In this document: positions 8,073 to 48,287 of the stretch, piece by piece
How positions within the stretch are numbered: position 1 is the stretch's first letter
Layout of the letters: every line of letters starts with the position of its first letter
Source: Gemmatimonadales bacterium
Lineage (GTDB): Bacteria; Gemmatimonadota; Gemmatimonadetes; Gemmatimonadales; GWC2-71-9
Direction: 5' to 3'
Length of the DNA: 64,000 nt
Assembly (NCBI GenBank): GCA_052389555.1
Contig: JBQTHV010000036.1
Coordinates: 18,531 to 82,530, forward strand
Program-made: the position numbers and the translations under genes
The notes under the pieces: generated by a model
The model's database searches: none
Seen by the model: only the letters and a program-made list of their open reading frames with translations
Told to the model about the DNA's origin: nothing

Positions 8073-8789
8073 TTAGGAGACCGCCGCAAGGAAGTCGTCC
8101 AGGGCCGTCGGAGGGTCTTTTGCGGTAAGGATCGGCCGGCCGACCACGAGGTGGCTCGCTCCGGCAAGGGCGGCTTCTCGAGGCCCGGCCACCCGGGCTT
8201 GATCGTTCACGTCATCCTGACGCCGGCGGATTCCCGGGACAACGATTAAAGCCTCGGGGCCAATAGCGCTCCGAACCCCTTGGATTTCGAGCGGGCTGCA
8301 CACTACCCCCGCGAGTCCAGCTGACATCGCGGACCGGGCGAGGTTCATCACTGCATCACCCACAGATTTCACAGATTTCACAGATTCTTCTTGATGGATA
8401 GTCATTTCATCTGGGTAATCTGTCGGCAATATCCTCGAGGTCGACGTCAGTACCGTAACGCCCACTACGGCAAGGGACGCTCCCCCCGCGCGCACCGCGG
8501 CCTGCATCATGTCGCGACCACCCACGGTGTGTACCGTCACCATCCGAACGCCGAGGCCTGCCGCCGCCTGCACGGCCCCTCGCACCGTGTTAGGAATGTC
8601 GTGCCATTTGAGATCGAGAAACACCGCAAGGCCACGCCCCACGAGCTCTCGGACCAGCCCGGGACCGCCGTCGGCCGCCGTCATGAGGATCGGGCCCAGT
8701 TTGACCCAGCGAAGGCGGGGCAACCGGTCGAGCAGCCGGAGCGCGTCGTCGCGGGTCGGCAAGTCCAGCGCCAGGATTACCTGAGCCAT
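8073..8789 (-). CDS. pyrF: orotidine 5'-phosphate decarboxylase
   Basis: MAQVILALDLP...VKLGP...FLDLKWHDIPNTV...VTVHTVGG...VVGRPI. I prefer ATG 8789 over the TTG at 8849 because homologs begin about 5-10 aa before ALD. Confidence 0.9.
   Translation of the reverse strand: MAQVILALDLPTRDDALRLLDRLPRLRWVKLGPILMTAADGGPGLVRELVGRGLAVFLDLKWHDIPNTVRGAVQAAAGLGVRMVTVHTVGGRDMMQAAVRAGGASLAVVGVTVLTSTSRILPTDYPDEMTIHQEESVKSVKSVGDAVMNLARSAMSAGLAGVVCSPLEIQGVRSAIGPEALIVVPGIRRRQDDVNDQARVAGPREAALAGASHLVVGRPILTAKDPPTALDDFLAAVS
8361..8424. repeat. tandem nonamer (CACAGATTT)x3 plus a partial inverted copy, inside pyrF
   Basis: cacagatttcacagatttcacagatt lies at 8361-8386 and aatctgtc at 8417-8424. The segment is locally AT-rich. 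It encodes ...EESVKSVKSVGD... in pyrF. Confidence 0.8.
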
Positions 8790-40853: not shown

Positions 40854-40953
40854 TTCGAGCCGCGGGGGAGGAAGTGGCGGAAGGGGAAGCGGACCAGGCA
40901 CCATCTCTAGTGTAATCCCAGAGGGGTCCCCGGCGAAGCGGGGCGGGACCGTG

Positions 40954-41306
40954 CTACGGCGTGATGGCAAACACGAACCGTTGCTGCACCAATTGGCAAA
41001 CCGGGCGCCCGTTGATTCGAGCCGGCCGGAACCGACTGCGCTGGAGCGCTTCGCGGGCGGGCAGCTCGAAGTGTGAATGGGAGCTGGCGACCACCTTCCA
41101 GCTATTCAGCTCAACATGGCCGCTGGTATCTACGACAAATTGGGCCTCGACGAATCCTTCGATGCCGGCATGCTGAAGGAGCGGAGGATGACGTGGGTCG
41201 GGACGATGGATCCCGCAGCGAGCAGCGCATGCAGCAGGGCGGACCAGGCGATCGATACACCGGGACGAATTCCGGCGGCCCGGGATTCGATGAGTCTCTC
41301 GAACAT
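40954..41306 (-). pseudogene. degraded TonB paralog (linker deleted and frame shifted)
   Basis: Frame A from ATG 41306 reads MFERLIESRAAGIRPGVSIAWSALLHALLAAGSIVPT... (compare MFENLVESKP... of tonB) and stops at 41130. A second frame encodes the C-terminal domain PRHPPLLQHAGIEGFVEAQFVVDTSGH...RPARINGRPVCQLVQQRFVF (compare PRYPPVLQQAGVQGFVEAQYVVDTTGH). The ~120-aa linker is missing. Confidence 0.65.
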
Positions 41307-41362
41307 GGCAAGAACTCCGGGTTAGGGCCCTTGACCAAGTAACTGCCTCCGGATGGATTCCC

Positions 41363-41422
41363 GATGACCGACGGATGACAACGTCCCGTGGCTCCAATGA
41401 CAAATCGATGACCGCAGGTCAC
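41363..41422 (-). promoter_or_regulatory. 11-bp-phased direct repeats GTCATC(G) upstream of the degraded tonB paralog
   Basis: In gene sense the units read GTGACCTGCG|GTCATCGATTT|GTCATTGGAGC|CACGGGACGTT|GTCATCCGTCG|GTCATCGG. GATGAC starts at 41363, 41374 and 41407, and AATGAC at 41396. Confidence 0.4.
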
Positions 41423-41454
41423 CGCAAAACAAACAGGGGCCCGAAGGCCCCTGT
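41423..41454 (-). terminator. intrinsic terminator of the tonB-exbB-exbD-exbD operon
   Basis: The stem is acaggggcc / ggcccctgt (9 bp, loop cgaa, 41433-41454). On the minus strand it is followed by TTTGTTTTG, 23 nt after the exbD stop. Confidence 0.85.
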
Positions 41455-41476
41455 CCCGTCCATGAACCCGCGGTCC

Positions 41477-41884
41477 TCAGGTCTTGGGCGTGAACCCGAT
41501 CACCTGGATCCCGGCACCCCGGGCCACATCCATGGCCTCGATCACTTCCTGGTAGACCCGGTTCCCCGCTGCCTTCACGAACAGCAGCTTGGCGGGCCGC
41601 GGATCGAAGATCGCGCGGATCTGGGTATCGAGCTGATTCTTCGGTACCGCTTGGCCGTTGATCGAGTAGCTGCCATCCGCCGCGATCTCGAGCACGATCT
41701 GGGTGGATGGCGCATTCGACGTCGTCTGGATCGGCGGCGGCACCTGCGCGTCCACCGCCATCCGGCTGAGCGGCAGCGAGATCATGAAGATGATCAGGAG
41801 CACGAGCAGGATGTCGATCATCGGGATCACGTTCGGCTCGGAGGTGATGCCGCCCGGTCCGCCCTGCTGAACTTGCATGCCCAT
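41477..41884 (-). CDS. exbD: ExbD/TolR family biopolymer transport protein
   Basis: SEPNVIPMIDILLVLLIIFM... is a typical ExbD TM region, followed by a periplasmic domain. Confidence 0.9.
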   Translation of the reverse strand: MGMQVQQGGPGGITSEPNVIPMIDILLVLLIIFMISLPLSRMAVDAQVPPPIQTTSNAPSTQIVLEIAADGSYSINGQAVPKNQLDTQIRAIFDPRPAKLLFVKAAGNRVYQEVIEAMDVARGAGIQVIGFTPKT

Positions 41885-41896
41885 ACGAGGCCCTCC

Positions 41897-42346
41897 CTAT
41901 TGCGCGGGGAGGCCACACGCCGAGCGGTCCTGGCACTCGGTGATGGCCCGCAGAACCCGCACGCCCGCCTTCCGGGCGATCTCGACCGCGTCCTGGACCT
42001 TAGCGAACGGCAGGTCCTTGTGGGCGCGGAAGTGCAGGATCTTGTCTTCCGTGTGCGTGGTGGCGTAGATGCTCCGCAACTGGTCCTCCAGCACCTCGGT
42101 CGGAATGTGATTGCCGTTCAGGAAATAGTCCCCGCCGATATCGATCCCCAGCACGACCTCGTTTTCGCCCTCCGGGCGCTTGTCGAGGTTGGTGCCGATC
42201 GGCATGGTGGCCTTGAAGCCGGCGGCGAGCAGGGGCGTCACGATCATGAAGATGATCAACAGCACCAGCATGATGTCGATCATCGGAATGACGTTCGGCT
42301 CCGATTTGACGGCCGTCTGGCCGGCCTTCTCAGCTGATGTGGCCAC
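41897..42346 (-). CDS. exbD: ExbD/TolR family biopolymer transport protein
   Basis: SEPNVIPMIDIMLVLLIIFMIVTP.... This is the second tandem copy and overlaps the exbB 3' end by 17 nt. Confidence 0.9.
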   Translation of the reverse strand: MATSAEKAGQTAVKSEPNVIPMIDIMLVLLIIFMIVTPLLAAGFKATMPIGTNLDKRPEGENEVVLGIDIGGDYFLNGNHIPTEVLEDQLRSIYATTHTEDKILHFRAHKDLPFAKVQDAVEIARKAGVRVLRAITECQDRSACGLPAQ

Positions 42347-43076
42347 TGCCGCTCACCGCCTTCTGAGCCTGGAACTCCTTGGTGAAGATCGAGCGGCCGA
42401 ATTCGCTGCCGACACTCTTGATGAGGTAGTCGATCAGCTCCTTCGACGTATAGGTCATCTCGACCGTCAGGTTCTCGACCTTGGTAGTGAAGTAGTTGTA
42501 GAACCACACCGCCGGGATCGCGACCGCGAGGCCGAGCGCCGTGGTGATCAGCGCTTCCGCGATACCCTTGGAGATTCCGGCCAAGCCGCCCGAGGTCCCC
42601 CCGGCGTTGATCGCGGAGAACGCCTGCACGATACCCATCGTGGTTCCCAACAGACCCACGAACGGTGCCGTGGCGCCTACGGTCGCCAGCACGCCGAGCC
42701 CGCGCTTGAACTCGGAGAGCACGATCAACATCTGCCGTTCCACCGCACGCTCCGCCGAATTGATGTCGGCAGCCGTAATGGTGGCGCGGTCCCTGAGCAG
42801 CGGCTTCACTTCCTGCAGCGCTCCACCCAGCACCCGGGAGACATGGCTCCCCTGGTTCTTCTCGGAGAGCGTGATCGCCTGATCGAGCTGCTCTTCCTGG
42901 ATGGCCCGCGAGAACTGGGGCGCGAACTTGCGGGTGGCCAAGGTGCTCTTGCGCACCTGCCAGAGCCTATTCAGCGCGATGGTGAGCGAGAAGAAGGACA
43001 TGATGAGCAGCGTAATCACGATCCCCTTGGCAAAGGGACCGGCATCACGCCACAGCTGGAGAATATCTACACCCAT
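42330..43076 (-). CDS. exbB: MotA/TolQ/ExbB proton channel family protein
   Basis: GIVITLLIMSFFSLTIAL...ATVGATAPFVGLLGTTMGIVQAF...GIAEALITTALGLAVAIPAVWFYNYF. Confidence 0.92.
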   Translation of the reverse strand: MGVDILQLWRDAGPFAKGIVITLLIMSFFSLTIALNRLWQVRKSTLATRKFAPQFSRAIQEEQLDQAITLSEKNQGSHVSRVLGGALQEVKPLLRDRATITAADINSAERAVERQMLIVLSEFKRGLGVLATVGATAPFVGLLGTTMGIVQAFSAINAGGTSGGLAGISKGIAEALITTALGLAVAIPAVWFYNYFTTKVENLTVEMTYTSKELIDYLIKSVGSEFGRSIFTKEFQAQKAVSGSGHIS

Positions 43077-43103
43077 GCTGGACTCCTTGGACGGGAAAAA
43101 AGG

Positions 43104-43805
43104 TTACTGGCCGATCGTGAACCCGAATCGCTGCTGCACCAGCTGCCGGACGGCCCGGCCCTTGATGCGGGCCGGCTTGAACACACTCTTCATCGCTGCC
43201 TCGCGGGCCGGCGCCTCGAACTGGGGATGGGTGCTCTTGGTCACCTTCCAGGAGGCCGGTTCAGCGTGGCCGGTAGTATCGACGACGTACTGCGCTTCCA
43301 CGAATCCCTGCACCCCGGCCTGCTGGAGCACCGGCGGATACCGCGGCTTGGGCTGGTTGATCGGAGCCACCGGATCATCGACTTCCTCGGCGAGGAACGC
43401 TTCGCCAGTAACCGGTCCGGTCCCACCAGCGATACCGGTGGCGATGCCGCCTTCAACCCCCTTTCCGCTGAAGTCCGCCGCGTTGAACCGCTCGTTGAGG
43501 TTGACCGGAGGAATCTCCTTCGGGATCTCGGTCGGCGGCATCACGGTCTGGAAGCCGAGCGGCGGCGGGTTAGCGGTCACGATGGCCTCCGGCGGCGGCG
43601 TCTCCGGCGGCGGCGGCGGCGGCGGCTCCGGCGGCTTGAGCCACACCATCGTGGTGTCCGACAGAATGTCCTCCATCGTCTCGGCGGCACTCTTGGTCGC
43701 CACTACGGCCCCGGCGATCACCGCCGTGTTAATGATGGCCGACAGGACCGCCTGCTTGAAGGTCTTCTGCTTCTTGGGTTTCGATTCTACCAGGTTCTCG
43801 AACAT
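43104..43805 (-). CDS. tonB: energy transducer TonB
   Basis: N-terminal anchor AVLSAIINTAVIAGAVVA, Pro-rich linker KPPEPPPPPPPETPPPE, and C-terminal domain PRYPPVLQQAGVQGFVEAQYVVDTTGH...FKPARIKGRAVRQLV. Confidence 0.9.
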   Translation of the reverse strand: MFENLVESKPKKQKTFKQAVLSAIINTAVIAGAVVATKSAAETMEDILSDTTMVWLKPPEPPPPPPPETPPPEAIVTANPPPLGFQTVMPPTEIPKEIPPVNLNERFNAADFSGKGVEGGIATGIAGGTGPVTGEAFLAEEVDDPVAPINQPKPRYPPVLQQAGVQGFVEAQYVVDTTGHAEPASWKVTKSTHPQFEAPAREAAMKSVFKPARIKGRAVRQLVQQRFGFTIGQ

Positions 43806-43879
43806 CGCGAGGGCGCCTCCCAGAGACTCATCTTCTTCCTAATAGTAGATGCCGATGGGTAGCTCGAGCTTCACCGCCG

Positions 43880-43907
43880 GATGACAATTCGATGACAAAA
43901 CGATTAG
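43880..43907 (-). promoter_or_regulatory. 11-bp-phased direct repeats (Pho-box-like) upstream of tonB
   Basis: In gene sense the sequence is TAATCGTTTTG|TCATCGAATTG|TCATC, that is GTCATC units separated by 4-bp A/T spacers. It lies 75-100 nt upstream of the tonB ATG and overlaps the kinase stop codon. Confidence 0.45.
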
Positions 43908-45367
43908 GAAACCCTCTCACTCGGTGTGGGACGCGGGAGCGTGACCGTGAACAGAGTTCCCCGGCCGGGGCGACTCTGGACCGTAATGCTGCCCCCGTGC
44001 GCTTCGGCCACCCACTTGGTGATGGCCAACCCCAGCCCCGCCCCAGGGCGCTCCCCGGTGCGGGAGCGGGCCGGGTCCGCCCGCCAGAAACGGTCGAATA
44101 TATGCGGCAGGTCTCCGGCCGCAATCCCGATCCCGGTATCCGCGACTGAGAGCACCAGGGCCTCTCCGGTGTCTCGCAGCGTGATGGTCACGCCCCCGGC
44201 GGGAGTGTACTTCACCGCATTGGTCACCAGGTTGAGGAGGAGCTGACGGATTCGCGCGCGGTCGGCGCGGAACGGAACCGGCGCATCCGGTAGCTCAGTG
44301 GTCACGGTGAGTCCGGCCGGCTCGGCCAGCATGCTCGCGGTTTCGCCGGCTTCGGCGACGAGCTCGCGCAGATCGCAGTCCTCCAGCGCGAGCGGGAAGC
44401 GGCCCTCGTCCGCCCGGGCGAGGGTGAGCAGGTTGTCGACCAGCTCGCTCATCCAATTGATCTGGTCGAGCGACTCGTCGAGGGCGGGCAGGATTTCGGC
44501 CGGCGTGCCGGGGTGACGAAGGGCACGCTCAACGCCGGTTCGAAGCACCATGAGCGGGGTCTTGAGCTCATGACTCGCCTCGGCAGTAAAGCGGTGCTGG
44601 GCCGAGAAGCTGCGTTCCAACCGCTCGAACATCCGGTTCGCGGCGGCGCCCAGCCGGGCAACCTCGTCGCCATCACGCTCGACCGGCACCCGGCGATGCA
44701 AGCTGGTGCCGTCGGTGATGGCCTCGAGCTCGCGCACCATGGCGCCGAGGGGGACCAGGTTGCGTCCCGCGACCCAGTAGCCGAGCAGCAGGGACGCCAG
44801 GAGGATCAGGGGCGCGATCACCAGCATGCTGGAGAGGAGCGCCTGGGCGTCGAGGATGGTCGCTGTGCTGGGCGCCGCGACCAGGAGTGCGGCGACTTCG
44901 AGGCCGGCGCCGCGCACCGGCATCGCCTGGTAATAGGCCGGACCGACTCGAGGATCGAACCGATAGGCCCCTTTACCGGGCGCCGGGGAGGGGGGCCGCA
45001 CTGGGGCGAGGAACTGTTCGAACGAGCTGACCGGCAGGGCCGCCGCGCTGTCGGAGGCGAAGAGCACCCGCCCCTGGCGATCGACCACCACGAAGTAGTC
45101 CTGGATGCTCTCGAAGTAGGAGGCGATGGCGGGCTCGAGCACCGGAAGCGAATCCCGGGTGACCACCCTACCTAACACGCGGTAGGATTCTTCCAGGTAA
45201 CGGGCCGCCAGCTCGGCCTCGAGCCGAATGCGGTCCTGCTGGCGAAGGTCGAAGCTCCGCCGGCTGGTGCGCTGCCAGCTGAAGTAGAGCAGCGCGCCGA
45301 AGGCGGCCATCGTTACGGCCAGTGCGACGGCGAAACCCGCGCTGAGCCGCCAGCGGATCGAGCGCAT
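43904..45367 (-). CDS. sensor histidine kinase (2 TM, periplasmic loop, HAMP, HisKA, HATPase)
   Basis: H-box FTAEASHELKTPL, ...LLLNLVTNAVKYTP...DTGIGI...GAGLGLAITK. Confidence 0.9.
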   Translation of the reverse strand: MRSIRWRLSAGFAVALAVTMAAFGALLYFSWQRTSRRSFDLRQQDRIRLEAELAARYLEESYRVLGRVVTRDSLPVLEPAIASYFESIQDYFVVVDRQGRVLFASDSAAALPVSSFEQFLAPVRPPSPAPGKGAYRFDPRVGPAYYQAMPVRGAGLEVAALLVAAPSTATILDAQALLSSMLVIAPLILLASLLLGYWVAGRNLVPLGAMVRELEAITDGTSLHRRVPVERDGDEVARLGAAANRMFERLERSFSAQHRFTAEASHELKTPLMVLRTGVERALRHPGTPAEILPALDESLDQINWMSELVDNLLTLARADEGRFPLALEDCDLRELVAEAGETASMLAEPAGLTVTTELPDAPVPFRADRARIRQLLLNLVTNAVKYTPAGGVTITLRDTGEALVLSVADTGIGIAAGDLPHIFDRFWRADPARSRTGERPGAGLGLAITKWVAEAHGGSITVQSRPGRGTLFTVTLPRPTPSERVS

Positions 45368-45368
45368 G

Positions 45369-46037
45369 TCAGGGCCGGATTACGTATCCGACTCCCCGCA
45401 CCGTGTGGAGCAGCTTCTTCTCGTGCTGGGCATCGATCTTCTTCCGGAGCCGGTTGATCACCACGTCCACGATGTTGGTGCCGGGGTCGAAGTGGTAGTC
45501 CCACACATACTCGGTGATCAAGGTACGTGACATGACCCGGGGGGAGTGCCGCATGAGGTACTCCAGTACCGAGTACTCCTTCGGCGTGAGCTCGATGAGC
45601 TGCCCGGCGCGGCGCATCTCATGGGTGTTGCGGTCGAGCTCGAGGTCGGCAACGACGAGGCGGGTCGGGGAGAGCTGCTTGGGGCGGCGGGCCAGGGCCT
45701 CGACCCGGGCCAGCACTTCCTCGAACGAGAACGGCTTGGTGACGTAGTCATCCGCGCCCGCCCGCAACGCCTCCACTTTCTGCCCCACCGCCTCCTGGGC
45801 GGTGAGAATCAGAATTGGGGTGGCGTTCCCGCGGTCGCGCAGGGTGCGGAGCACCTCCAGGCCGGTCATCCCGGGGAGGCGGAGGTCCAGAATCACCAAG
45901 TCGTAGTGCCCGCCCGACGCGAGTCGCAAGGCCTCGAGGCCATCGGGGACCAGATCGGCGTGGTACTGGGCCTCTTCCAGGCCCCGGCGGACATACTGGC
46001 CGACCGTGCGGTCGTCTTCGACGACCAGGATCTTCAC
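45369..46037 (-). CDS. OmpR/PhoB-family response regulator (winged-helix DNA-binding)
   Basis: MKILVVEDD...DLVILDLRLPGMTG...GADDYVTKPF is a REC domain. LTPKEYSVLEYLMRH...NIVDVVINRLRKKID...TVRGVGYVI is the winged helix. Confidence 0.93.
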   Translation of the reverse strand: MKILVVEDDRTVGQYVRRGLEEAQYHADLVPDGLEALRLASGGHYDLVILDLRLPGMTGLEVLRTLRDRGNATPILILTAQEAVGQKVEALRAGADDYVTKPFSFEEVLARVEALARRPKQLSPTRLVVADLELDRNTHEMRRAGQLIELTPKEYSVLEYLMRHSPRVMSRTLITEYVWDYHFDPGTNIVDVVINRLRKKIDAQHEKKLLHTVRGVGYVIRP

Positions 46038-47563
46038 GCGGCCGCTCCAATCGCCACGGGCAGGAATACCCGGAAGTTGGTGCCGCGGCCCGGCTCGGAA
46101 TCCACCTCGATCCGGCCGTAGTGCTGCTCCACGATCCCATAGCAGATCGAAAGACCTAACCCGGTGCCGCGACCCGGCGGCTTGGTGGTGTAGAACGGCT
46201 CGAAGATCTTGGGCAGGTCGGCCGCCGCAATGCCGTGGCCGGTATCCGCGATCTCGATCTCCACCTCGTCGCCGCGAGCCGGATTGGTCCGGGTCGTCAC
46301 CGTGAGCACGCCGCCCTCGTCCATCGAATCGACGCCGTTCAGCATGAGGGCCATCAGCACCTGGATCATCTGCTCGTCGTTGGCCAGGATCGGAGGAATG
46401 TCGTCGCCGAGGTGCCTGGTCACGGTGATGCGCTTGAACCGCTGGTGATGCTTCAGCAGGAACAGGGTCTGCTCGACCAGCTCATTGACCGGCGTCGGAC
46501 CCTTCGGGACGGGTTCCCTGGGCCGGCTGAAGTCGAGCAGGCCCTCAACGATCCGGCTGCACCGGTCCACTTCCTTGTCGATGATTTCGAGGTACTCCCG
46601 GACGGTCGCGTCGGTCTTGCTGATCCGCCCTTCGATCGCGGCCACGCAGGCGCCAATCGTCGCGAGCGGATTGTTGATCTCGTGCATCACGCCGGCGGCG
46701 AGCTGGCCCACGGCGGCCAGTTTCTCGCTCTGGAGAATCCGAAGCTGCACCTCACGCGACTCGGTGACATCCTCGCCGATCGTGATCACATGGGTAATGG
46801 CATCGCCCTCGAGCCGCATCGGGATCCGGCTGATCCGGTAGTATCGGGTGTCCCCGGCTCCCTGGCCTTTGACCTCGATATCCAGTTGCTGGAGCTCGCC
46901 GGCCCGGAACACCCGGTCGAACTCGGCCTTGAGCTGGACCGCAGGCTGCCGGGTTAGGACCTCGAAGACCTGGCGCCCCACCACGTCGGATCTTCGCAGG
47001 CCCTGGGTACCCAGCTCCCGCTTCCGGTTCCAGACCTGAATCCGGTAATCCCGGTCGATGACATAGAGGCCGACCGGGAGACTGTCGATGATGAGGCTGG
47101 TGAACCGGCGCTGCTCCTCGATCGCGCGAGAGCGGCTTGCCACTTCGAGGGCCAGATCCTCAGACAGCGCAACCGTGCCGAGAAACGGCGCCAGCAAGTC
47201 ACCGACGATCGGCAGTACCGCAGCCATGCGCTCGGGCGGCTGAGCCGGCGGGACGAACTCGAGCTCGAGCAGGCCGACCCGCGTCCCCGCATGGATCAGC
47301 GGAACTCGGCGTACTCCCGGCCCTGCCGGGGGCAGCGCGTCGAGCGACTCCACGAAGTACTGCCTGCTGGGCCGGGTCACCCCGGTAAATCCGGCGGACC
47401 TCGGCTCGCGACGCCAGATCACGGCGCGTTGCGCACCCAGACCATGCTGCAGAGCCACCGCGACGGTCCGCAGCGTTTCATCCGGTCCCAGGCCGCCGTT
47501 CAACACGCCGGCGATCTGACCGATCAACTCCAGCGCCGACCGCCCGGCCGCGAGCTCCGTCAT
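46034..47563 (-). CDS. sensor histidine kinase (cytoplasmic GAF-PAS-HisKA-HATPase)
   Basis: H-box AAGVMHEINNPLATI, ...LNGVDSM...DTGHGI...GTGLGLSICYG. There is no TM segment. It overlaps the regulator start by 4 nt. Confidence 0.9.
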   Translation of the reverse strand: MTELAAGRSALELIGQIAGVLNGGLGPDETLRTVAVALQHGLGAQRAVIWRREPRSAGFTGVTRPSRQYFVESLDALPPAGPGVRRVPLIHAGTRVGLLELEFVPPAQPPERMAAVLPIVGDLLAPFLGTVALSEDLALEVASRSRAIEEQRRFTSLIIDSLPVGLYVIDRDYRIQVWNRKRELGTQGLRRSDVVGRQVFEVLTRQPAVQLKAEFDRVFRAGELQQLDIEVKGQGAGDTRYYRISRIPMRLEGDAITHVITIGEDVTESREVQLRILQSEKLAAVGQLAAGVMHEINNPLATIGACVAAIEGRISKTDATVREYLEIIDKEVDRCSRIVEGLLDFSRPREPVPKGPTPVNELVEQTLFLLKHHQRFKRITVTRHLGDDIPPILANDEQMIQVLMALMLNGVDSMDEGGVLTVTTRTNPARGDEVEIEIADTGHGIAAADLPKIFEPFYTTKPPGRGTGLGLSICYGIVEQHYGRIEVDSEPGRGTNFRVFLPVAIGAAA

Positions 47564-47691: not shown

Positions 47692-48287
47692 TCAGAAGGA
47701 ATGCGGCGTCCCTAACCCGTACACCGCCGTCTCGGGATGGTAGGTCGTCCAGTCGAACCAGTAGTCCTTGAGGACATAGATCGCCCAGTAGTCCTTGAGG
47801 ACATAGACCGCCGTCAGCGGCCTGCCCTGGAGCGGACCGGCAATCGCGCGGCCGGTCACCTGTTGCCACCAGGAGCCGGTTTCCCGATCTTCCATGATGA
47901 AGTTCTGATTGTTGATGCCGGCGAGCCGGAAGCTCAACACCTGTCCGTCCACTGTCCGCTCCCACCCCAGACCGGTGTGGCAAAGCGTTCAATAGGTCGC
48001 GAGGATGGGCACTCCACCGACCGAATCGTTCACGAGGTGATGATAGGCGAGCTGGCGCACCGGATACCCAGCGGGGTCACCGCCGATCAGGACCGCGAGG
48101 ACCATGTCGTCCGGGTTCACGAGAACTCGGCCTGGGCGGCCCGCACAAAGCGAGGGTCCGTCAGCGGGGCGAACATCCATTCGAAGTAGTTCTGGCGCGC
48201 GAGCCACGCGGAGCCGACGATCGGCAAGGCCAGCACCGCGGCCAACACCCGAGGCACGACCCACCGTATTACTCGGCTCCGGTTCAT
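47692..48287 (-). pseudogene. DUF3179 family gene interrupted by a frameshift (~48120) and an in-frame TGA (47989-47991); alternatively a selenoprotein
   Basis: Three collinear pieces are present. The first is [28 protein letters not shown]...AAQAEFS* (48117-48287). The second is ...VNPDDMVLAVLIGGDPAGYPVRQLAYHHLVNDSVGGVPILATY-TGA. The third is TLCHTGLGWERTVDGQVLSFRLAGINNQNFIMEDRETGSWWQQVTG...HPETAV. The TGA occupies the first Cys of the family CxLC motif. Confidence 0.7.
47758..47811. repeat. 27-bp tandem duplication inside the DUF3179 gene
   Basis: ccagtagtccttgaggacataga occurs at 47758 and again at 47785, giving YVLKDYWAI-YVLKDYWFD. Confidence 0.9.

Follow-up and report, generated by a model that had tools for sequence, protein, structure and literature searches.

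An 11-bp-phased repeat element upstream of tonB, kept across Gemmatimonadales, as a candidate operator of an OmpR-family regulator

What sets the expression of the TonB energiser, and which protein would do so, is the question raised by a 64-kb stretch of DNA from a Gemmatimonadales bacterium (66.7% GC; hereafter the window), in which short direct repeats stand immediately ahead of tonB, at the end of an operon encoding a response regulator and two histidine kinases. All genes of interest lie on the minus strand. To our knowledge, almost nothing is known of transcriptional regulation in Gemmatimonadota, a phylum abundant in soil. An earlier note, made from the letters of this DNA, had read the repeats as Pho-box-like sites upstream of two tonB paralogs, and had put forward the regulator next to them as their binder. 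We found that the element has three units rather than two and is kept upstream of tonB throughout the order, and on balance we lean towards the reading that it is an OmpR-family operator activating tonB-exbBD, most likely via the adjacent CusR-like regulator, a predicted binder.

A three-unit element at tonB-family genes

The operator candidate reads, in gene sense, CTAATCGTTTTGTCATCGAATTGTCATC / CCTAATCGTTTTGTCATCGAATTGTCATCC and occupies positions 43879-43907 of the minus strand, upstream of tonB (43104-43805; 233 amino acids (aa), with a TonB_C domain). Its units are CTAAT (unit 1, 43903-43907), TGTCAT (unit 2, 43892-43897) and, closest to the promoter, a second TGTCAT (unit 3, 43881-43886). 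The letters on the gene strand agree with the earlier reading at both of its sites, and the kinase operon does end within the tonB site, since the TAA stop codon of the distal kinase gene, encoding a membrane kinase with a HAMP domain, lies at 43904-43906, inside unit 1. The two units counted at tonB by the earlier note are in fact three, and the spacers, which it took to be uniform 4-bp A/T segments, vary: tonB has CGTTT and CGAAT, and one pair of units in the second site, which precedes a degraded tonB copy, is separated by CCGTCG.

The arrangement is strongly over-represented in the window. Searched on both strands, the 64 kb contain GTCAT-N6-GTCAT three times, where dinucleotide-preserving shuffles predict 0.03, and none of 100 shuffles gave three or more; all three copies lie on the gene strand, ahead of tonB or of the degraded tonB copy. 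Likewise, TGTMAT-N5-TGTMAT has one match against 0.025 expected, and the three-unit pattern one match against 0.0 expected. The single heptamer TGTCATC, by comparison, is not enriched in the window (8 occurrences against 6.1 expected); the signal, therefore, is the 11-bp phasing.

Alignment of TonB orthologs gave 80 Gemmatimonadales loci, with TonB identity from 82% down to 52%, to which further contigs with TonB at 85-92% identity were added. A 29-bp matrix found the element upstream of tonB in all 78 loci with enough upstream sequence (TonB identity 92%-52%), about 100 nt before the tonB start. Across these loci the full element consists of three 11-bp-phased units, CT(A/C)AT-N6-GT(C/A/T)AT-N6-G(T/A)(C/A)AT, in which unit 2 is kept in all loci as TGT(C/A/T)AT and unit 3 is TGTCAT or TGACAT; one large clade carries the variant CTAATGCGGTTGTAATCGAAATGACATC. 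Information content reaches 1.4-2.3 bits within the units, unit 2 included (its T, G, T, A and T), and is about zero in the first spacer. The possibility that CTAAT is kept merely as the kinase stop was rejected: CT(A/C)AT is kept even in 32 of 70 loci without a long open reading frame ending within 40 nt, and in one clade it is CTCAT.

When 937 kb of these loci were scanned with a 19-bp core matrix, 82 sites fell at tonB and 9 elsewhere, compared with 1-2 in shuffles. At least four of the nine precede an additional tonB paralog, and otherwise the element is essentially absent from about 1 Mb of related DNA. By eye, a further full-length tonB paralog was seen to separate the HAMP kinase gene from tonB in about 10 loci (L014, L042-L044, L048, L059, L061, L063 and L066, with a degraded one in L027). 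These paralogs lie at about -770 to -940 relative to tonB, encode 216-236 aa and are about 30-40% identical to TonB, and each has its own three-unit phased site, with the layout CTCAC-N6-ATCAT-N6-GTCAT. Judged from these comparisons, the element is specific to tonB-family genes and under purifying selection. The absence from relatives that would have spoken against the earlier note was not seen; the element is kept at tonB orthologs and paralogs order-wide and is a genuine cis-regulatory element.

Promoter geometry and the likeness to Pho boxes

The distance between the element and a putative core promoter is likewise fixed. A predicted -10 hexamer, TACTAT (43842-43847), lies 33 nt after unit 3 in the window. 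A TAnnnT hexamer (TACTTT, TAGCTT and others) stands 32-33 nt past unit 3 in 55 of 77 loci, and in five more after the anchor was re-registered, against a background of 0.002-0.013 per position; one subclade has TTGATT in its place. In nine of the ten extra-paralog promoters TAnCTA follows the third unit by exactly 32 nt, the intervening sequence being unrelated. A consensus promoter scan detected no sigma-70 -35/-10 pair in the tonB promoter region, a result in keeping with activator-dependent transcription. Taking the hexamer as the -10 would place the unit centres near -47, -58 and -69, in the usual OmpR-type activator position at a promoter lacking a -35 element. The last unit as a -35 element was rejected, because the hexamers 17-19 nt downstream of it differ between clades and the consensus scan gave no promoter there.

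The units recur in direct orientation at intervals of one helical turn, all facing the same side of the double helix, and keep a fixed distance from the predicted core promoter; this layout conforms to an operator of the OmpR/PhoB family, as the earlier note had proposed. OmpR itself has such arrays at ompF (F1-F3) and ompC (C1-C3); there, too, several half-sites follow one another at intervals of about 10 bp and sit in the activator position, directly ahead of a weak -35 element, whereas their half-site sequence, the regulator subfamily and the target genes are different. Fur is the usual control of tonB in other phyla, and the 19-bp, A/T-rich Fur palindrome GATAATGATAATCATTATC was not seen between the units and the start codon when the conserved alignment was examined by eye, unscored.

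No part of the region matched Rfam at E<=1, alifold returned no consensus structure, and fold z-scores for the spacer and leader were near zero, indicating that the element acts at the level of DNA. Apparent compensatory pairs noticed by eye did not hold up. Another reading is that the phased A/T-rich segments are no protein-specific site, and that they form an UP-element-like or intrinsically bent stretch strengthening a constitutive promoter of tonB. In favour of this, the element stands out as A/T-rich against a GC content of 67%, its phase is close to one helical turn, and it falls at about -45 to -71, where UP elements act. We nevertheless consider such an origin very unlikely, given that the best-kept positions include the G and C of TGTCAT and not A-tracts, that the A/T-rich first spacer is unconserved, and that the motif is confined to tonB-family genes and absent from about 1 Mb of other sequence, including many promoters.

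The likeness to the Pho box of Escherichia coli (CTGTCAT-N4-CTGTCAT), stressed in the earlier note, stands as to form and fails as to geometry. Two (C)TGTCAT direct repeats with an 11-bp period are present in TGTCATCGAATTGTCAT at 43881-43897, and the TGTCAT half-site, the period, the use of multi-unit arrays, which are typical of pho promoters, and the winged-helix response regulator expected to bind are common to both. Pho boxes, however, replace the -35 element and lie about 10 nt from the -10, whereas 60 of the 77 main promoters and 9 of the 10 paralog ones have 32-33 nt between the last unit and the predicted -10, which puts the tonB site about two helical turns further from the -10-like hexamer. 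Also unlike a pho promoter, the site opens with a CTAAT unit and has the TonB energiser as its target, no phosphate genes lie nearby, and the adjacent regulator is no PhoB ortholog (see below).

The units could still be true Pho boxes bound by a PhoB ortholog encoded elsewhere, in which case the TonB energiser would be under phosphate-starvation control and the neighbouring two-component system would be unrelated to the element. Indeed, TGTCATCGAATTGTCATC shares form and 11-bp period with E. coli PhoB sites mapped by chromatin immunoprecipitation sequencing, at phoH (TGTCATCACTCTGTCATC) and phoA (TGTCATAAAGTTGTCACG) (PMC10294691), so the motif alone cannot identify the binder. The same study stresses strict spacing (PMC10294691), which the position of the last unit does not respect. 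The window, moreover, holds neither phosphate genes nor further copies of the motif, and the element tracks the tonB paralogs and the adjacent two-component system. We regard a PhoB operator as unlikely.

The neighbouring regulator as candidate binder

The three signalling genes are packed closely. A cytoplasmic PAS histidine kinase of 509 aa (46034-47563) overlaps by 4 nt, at 46034-46037, the start of the gene for the OmpR-family response regulator, our candidate binder (222 aa, 45369-46037). The membrane HAMP histidine kinase (487 aa, 43904-45367), with two transmembrane helices and a periplasmic domain of about 145 aa, starts directly after the regulator stop (45367-45369). This arrangement suggests translational coupling of all three genes, and transcription may read through from the HAMP kinase into tonB, because no terminator lies between them. 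Essentially every locus shows the order SOD, (DUF3179), PAS kinase, regulator, HAMP kinase, tonB-exbB-exbD-exbD, permease, and across them the regulator is better conserved than TonB. In 65 loci neither the regulator segment VMSRTLITEY.WDYHFDPGTNIVDVV.NR.RKK nor the wing HTVRG.GY varies; such an invariant helix-turn-helix and wing may mean many more targets than the visible tonB genes.

The best family for the regulator is the heavy-metal subfamily TIGR01387 (246.7 bits), while the PhoB models give 185.3 bits for TIGR02154 (cut-off 296.2) and 149.7 for the Bacteroidetes PhoB model (cut-off 270). Its DNA-binding domain scores 87-89 bits against PcoR (87) and Mycobacterium tuberculosis PhoP, and 50 against E. 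coli PhoB. The recognition helix, TNIVDVVINRLRKKID, most resembles that of PcoR, TNVIDVAVRRLRSKID. The best family of the HAMP kinase is TIGR01386 (232.2 bits). By these protein comparisons the adjacent regulator is CusR/CopR/PcoR-like and not a PhoB ortholog.

Binding sites mapped for this subfamily contain the same half-site. The CusR/HprR box is CATTACAAAATTGTAATG (PMC9302797), and the AgrR operator is ATKACA-N4-TGTMAT with extra direct repeats in phase (PMC7380067). The half-site TGT(A/C)AT of the CusR, HprR, CopR and AgrR boxes is identical to that at tonB, and its alternation between C and A matches the one seen between Gemmatimonadales clades. The subfamily is also the one that best matches the regulator together with its HAMP kinase, and the in-phase direct repeats of AgrR have their counterpart here. 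Given this half-site and the order-wide adjacency, the regulator, which the earlier note had called the obvious candidate, is a reasonable one.

The locus departs from CusRS-type systems in several respects. No efflux or copper genes lie nearby, the neighbours being SOD, DUF3179 and tonB-exbBD; a second, cytoplasmic PAS kinase is present; and the periplasmic domain of the HAMP kinase (44830-45275; residues ~31-178) has no His, no Cys and one Met. With such a domain, a metal bound in the manner of CusS is an improbable signal. The window contains no TonB-dependent receptor, phosphate (pst, pho, phn) or metal genes, and we found no link to phosphate, iron or copper. A literature search on tonB regulation in Gemmatimonadetes returned nothing specific.

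The activation of tonB-exbBD by the CusR-like regulator, which we favour, would proceed as follows. The cytoplasmic PAS kinase and the periplasm-sensing HAMP kinase would both feed the regulator, which, once phosphorylated, would bind head-to-tail on the 11-bp-phased T(G)T(C/A)AT units along one face of the DNA. With the units at about -47, -58 and -69 of a promoter that has a TAnnTT -10 and no recognisable -35, the bound regulator would bring in RNA polymerase and switch on tonB-exbB-exbD-exbD. The extra tonB paralogs elsewhere and the decaying tonB copy in the window would be driven in the same way. In this scheme the start of transcription, the direction of control (activation and not repression), the binder and the signal are inferred.

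Several observations weigh against this assignment. Many two-component systems of this kind autoregulate, and neither the window nor any of the loci has a similar site ahead of the operon that encodes the regulator. The recognition helix is unchanged where the motif goes from TGTCAT to TGTAAT or TGACAT, so that protein and site show no co-variation. The mapped CusR and AgrR boxes are inverted, with 6-4-6 spacing, whereas the tonB units are direct, 6-5-6, and the inverted form ATKACA-N4-TGTMAT has no match in the window. Both the regulator and the kinase fall under the cut-offs of their heavy-metal families (279.2 and 292.55 bits, respectively). The motif fits E. coli PhoB sites equally well, and a PhoB ortholog encoded elsewhere could bind it. 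Conserved adjacency alone can reflect inherited gene order, and the -10 and the start site are themselves predictions.

The operator might instead belong to another factor that binds direct repeats, be it a different OmpR-family regulator, a ToxR/CadC-like or SARP-like winged-helix protein or a member of an unrelated family, and such a factor could repress. OmpR-family paralogs are usually numerous in a bacterial genome, and their half-sites overlap; the neighbouring regulator is not tied to the motif by any autoregulatory site; and one unit of the second site overlaps the -35 position. In E. coli, PhoB itself binds the cusR/cusC region (PMC10294691). The conserved block, however, encodes no other candidate, the half-site fits the subfamily of the neighbouring regulator, and a fixed place upstream of the -35 region would be unusual for a repressor. 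We therefore hold a different binder to be fairly unlikely, and retain the adjacent CusR-like regulator as the preferred one.

Control of TonB-dependent uptake by an OmpR-family two-component system has a precedent in Xanthomonas campestris, where VgrR of the VgrRS (ColRS) system senses iron and represses the receptor gene tdvA (PMC5231390). There too the system directly controls a component of TonB-dependent uptake. Unlike in VgrRS, the proposed target here is tonB-exbBD itself and not a receptor gene.

The duplicated site, the surrounding genes and their meaning

The window TonB has orthologs of 70-92% identity in Gemmatimonadales, annotated as energy transducer TonB. Its gene is preceded by a Shine-Dalgarno sequence, GGAGG (43816-43820), and followed in the same orientation by exbB (42330-43076), a first exbD (41897-42346) and a second, exbD2 (41477-41884). 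After exbD2 comes a strong intrinsic terminator read from the sequence, ACAGGGGCC-TTCG-GGCCCCTGT then TTGTTTTG (41425-41454), which is kept in locus L081. The terminator scan missed it and called instead, downstream in gene sense, a weak hairpin, CGGTGACC-TGC-GGTCATCG, at 41406-41424 of the minus strand, overlapping the first unit of the second site. Beyond the terminator follow a tonB-like remnant, a 283-aa Pro/Gly-rich TonB-like gene and an amino-acid permease.

The earlier note placed repeats ahead of both tonB paralogs. Sites are indeed present at both, whereas the second gene proved to be a linker-deleted, frameshifted copy confined to this lineage. The degraded copy spans 40954-41306; its N-terminal membrane-anchor reading frame runs from 41306 to 41130, and TonB_C is encoded in a different frame, up to 40954. 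A linker some 110 residues long is gone, and the two frames meet near a GGG run. The C-terminal domain of the remnant is 65% identical to tonB in aa and 69% in nt, closer than to the extra paralogs of other genomes. In the closest relatives the exbD2 terminator is followed directly by the 283-aa gene, with no remnant module between them; the insertion is, therefore, specific to this lineage. The sole database match of the reconstructed remnant protein was this genome's own 85-aa fragment, and the idea of a family of intact, linker-less 'mini-TonB' proteins was rejected on that result.

Upstream of the remnant the sequence reads, in gene sense, GGTCATCGATTTGTCATTGGAGCCACGGGACGTTGTCATCCGTCGGTCATCGG, and contains a second operator candidate (41364-41412), in which GTCAT occurs four times, at 41412-41408, 41401-41397, 41379-41375 and 41368-41364. 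The offsets are 0, 11, 33 and 44, leaving one phase position vacant, and the core matrix scores 23.0 at 41396-41414. A weak -10-like hexamer of the putative remnant promoter, TACTTG (41336-41341), aligns with the cTTACTTTcc of tonB promoters; 33 nt separate it from the third unit, as in the tonB promoter, and the fourth unit is nearer by one helical turn. When the region is compared with the tonB promoter, the phased units alone still align, after an old duplication. The second site is best read as a duplicated operator ahead of a decaying gene.

A decaying gene found in this lineage alone, and a weak hairpin call over the first unit, are what one might also expect if the repeats were chance or neutral, for example the residue of a duplication. 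Enrichment of about 100-fold over shuffles, and conservation across an order in which TonB falls to 52% identity, make such an origin extremely improbable, and for the tonB site effectively refute it.

Two other parts of the locus deserve mention. For the 283-aa TonB-like gene, the likely start is the ATG or GTG at 40904/40901, 4-7 nt past a TACACT hexamer; the layout of 40899-40914 (minus strand) recurs in L081 (~8420-8440) and in L084 (~2760-2780), with TACACT or TAGAAT, which suggests that the mRNA is leaderless and that translation begins further downstream than the longest reading frame would have it. In the interval between the SOD gene and the PAS kinase, within the DUF3179-like region, a 27-bp unit is repeated in tandem at 47758-47812 (2.0 copies, 96% match); the DUF3179 reading frames appear fragmented in the window, and L081 has two intact genes.

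The regulatory system described here is of an ordinary, well-known type, and its value is that of a precise, order-wide prediction in a poorly studied phylum: it supplies an operator, a candidate regulator and a promoter layout that can be tested in cultured Gemmatimonas strains. It also cautions against the automatic reading of a TGTCAT direct repeat as a phosphate signal, since this half-site is used by the CusR/CopR subfamily as well. A further-reaching proposal, which we put forward tentatively and with some doubt, is that across the order TonB-ExbBD and every extra tonB paralog, rather than single receptors, are hard-wired to a dedicated circuit of two kinases and one regulator, in which a cytoplasmic PAS input and a periplasmic non-metal input act through a direct-repeat variant of the CusR-type half-site, replacing control by Fur. 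If this were true, the invariant DNA-binding surface of the regulator would point to a larger, still unseen regulon. The results suggest that in these bacteria a two-component system, instead of or alongside Fur, governs outer-membrane transport capacity through the energiser.

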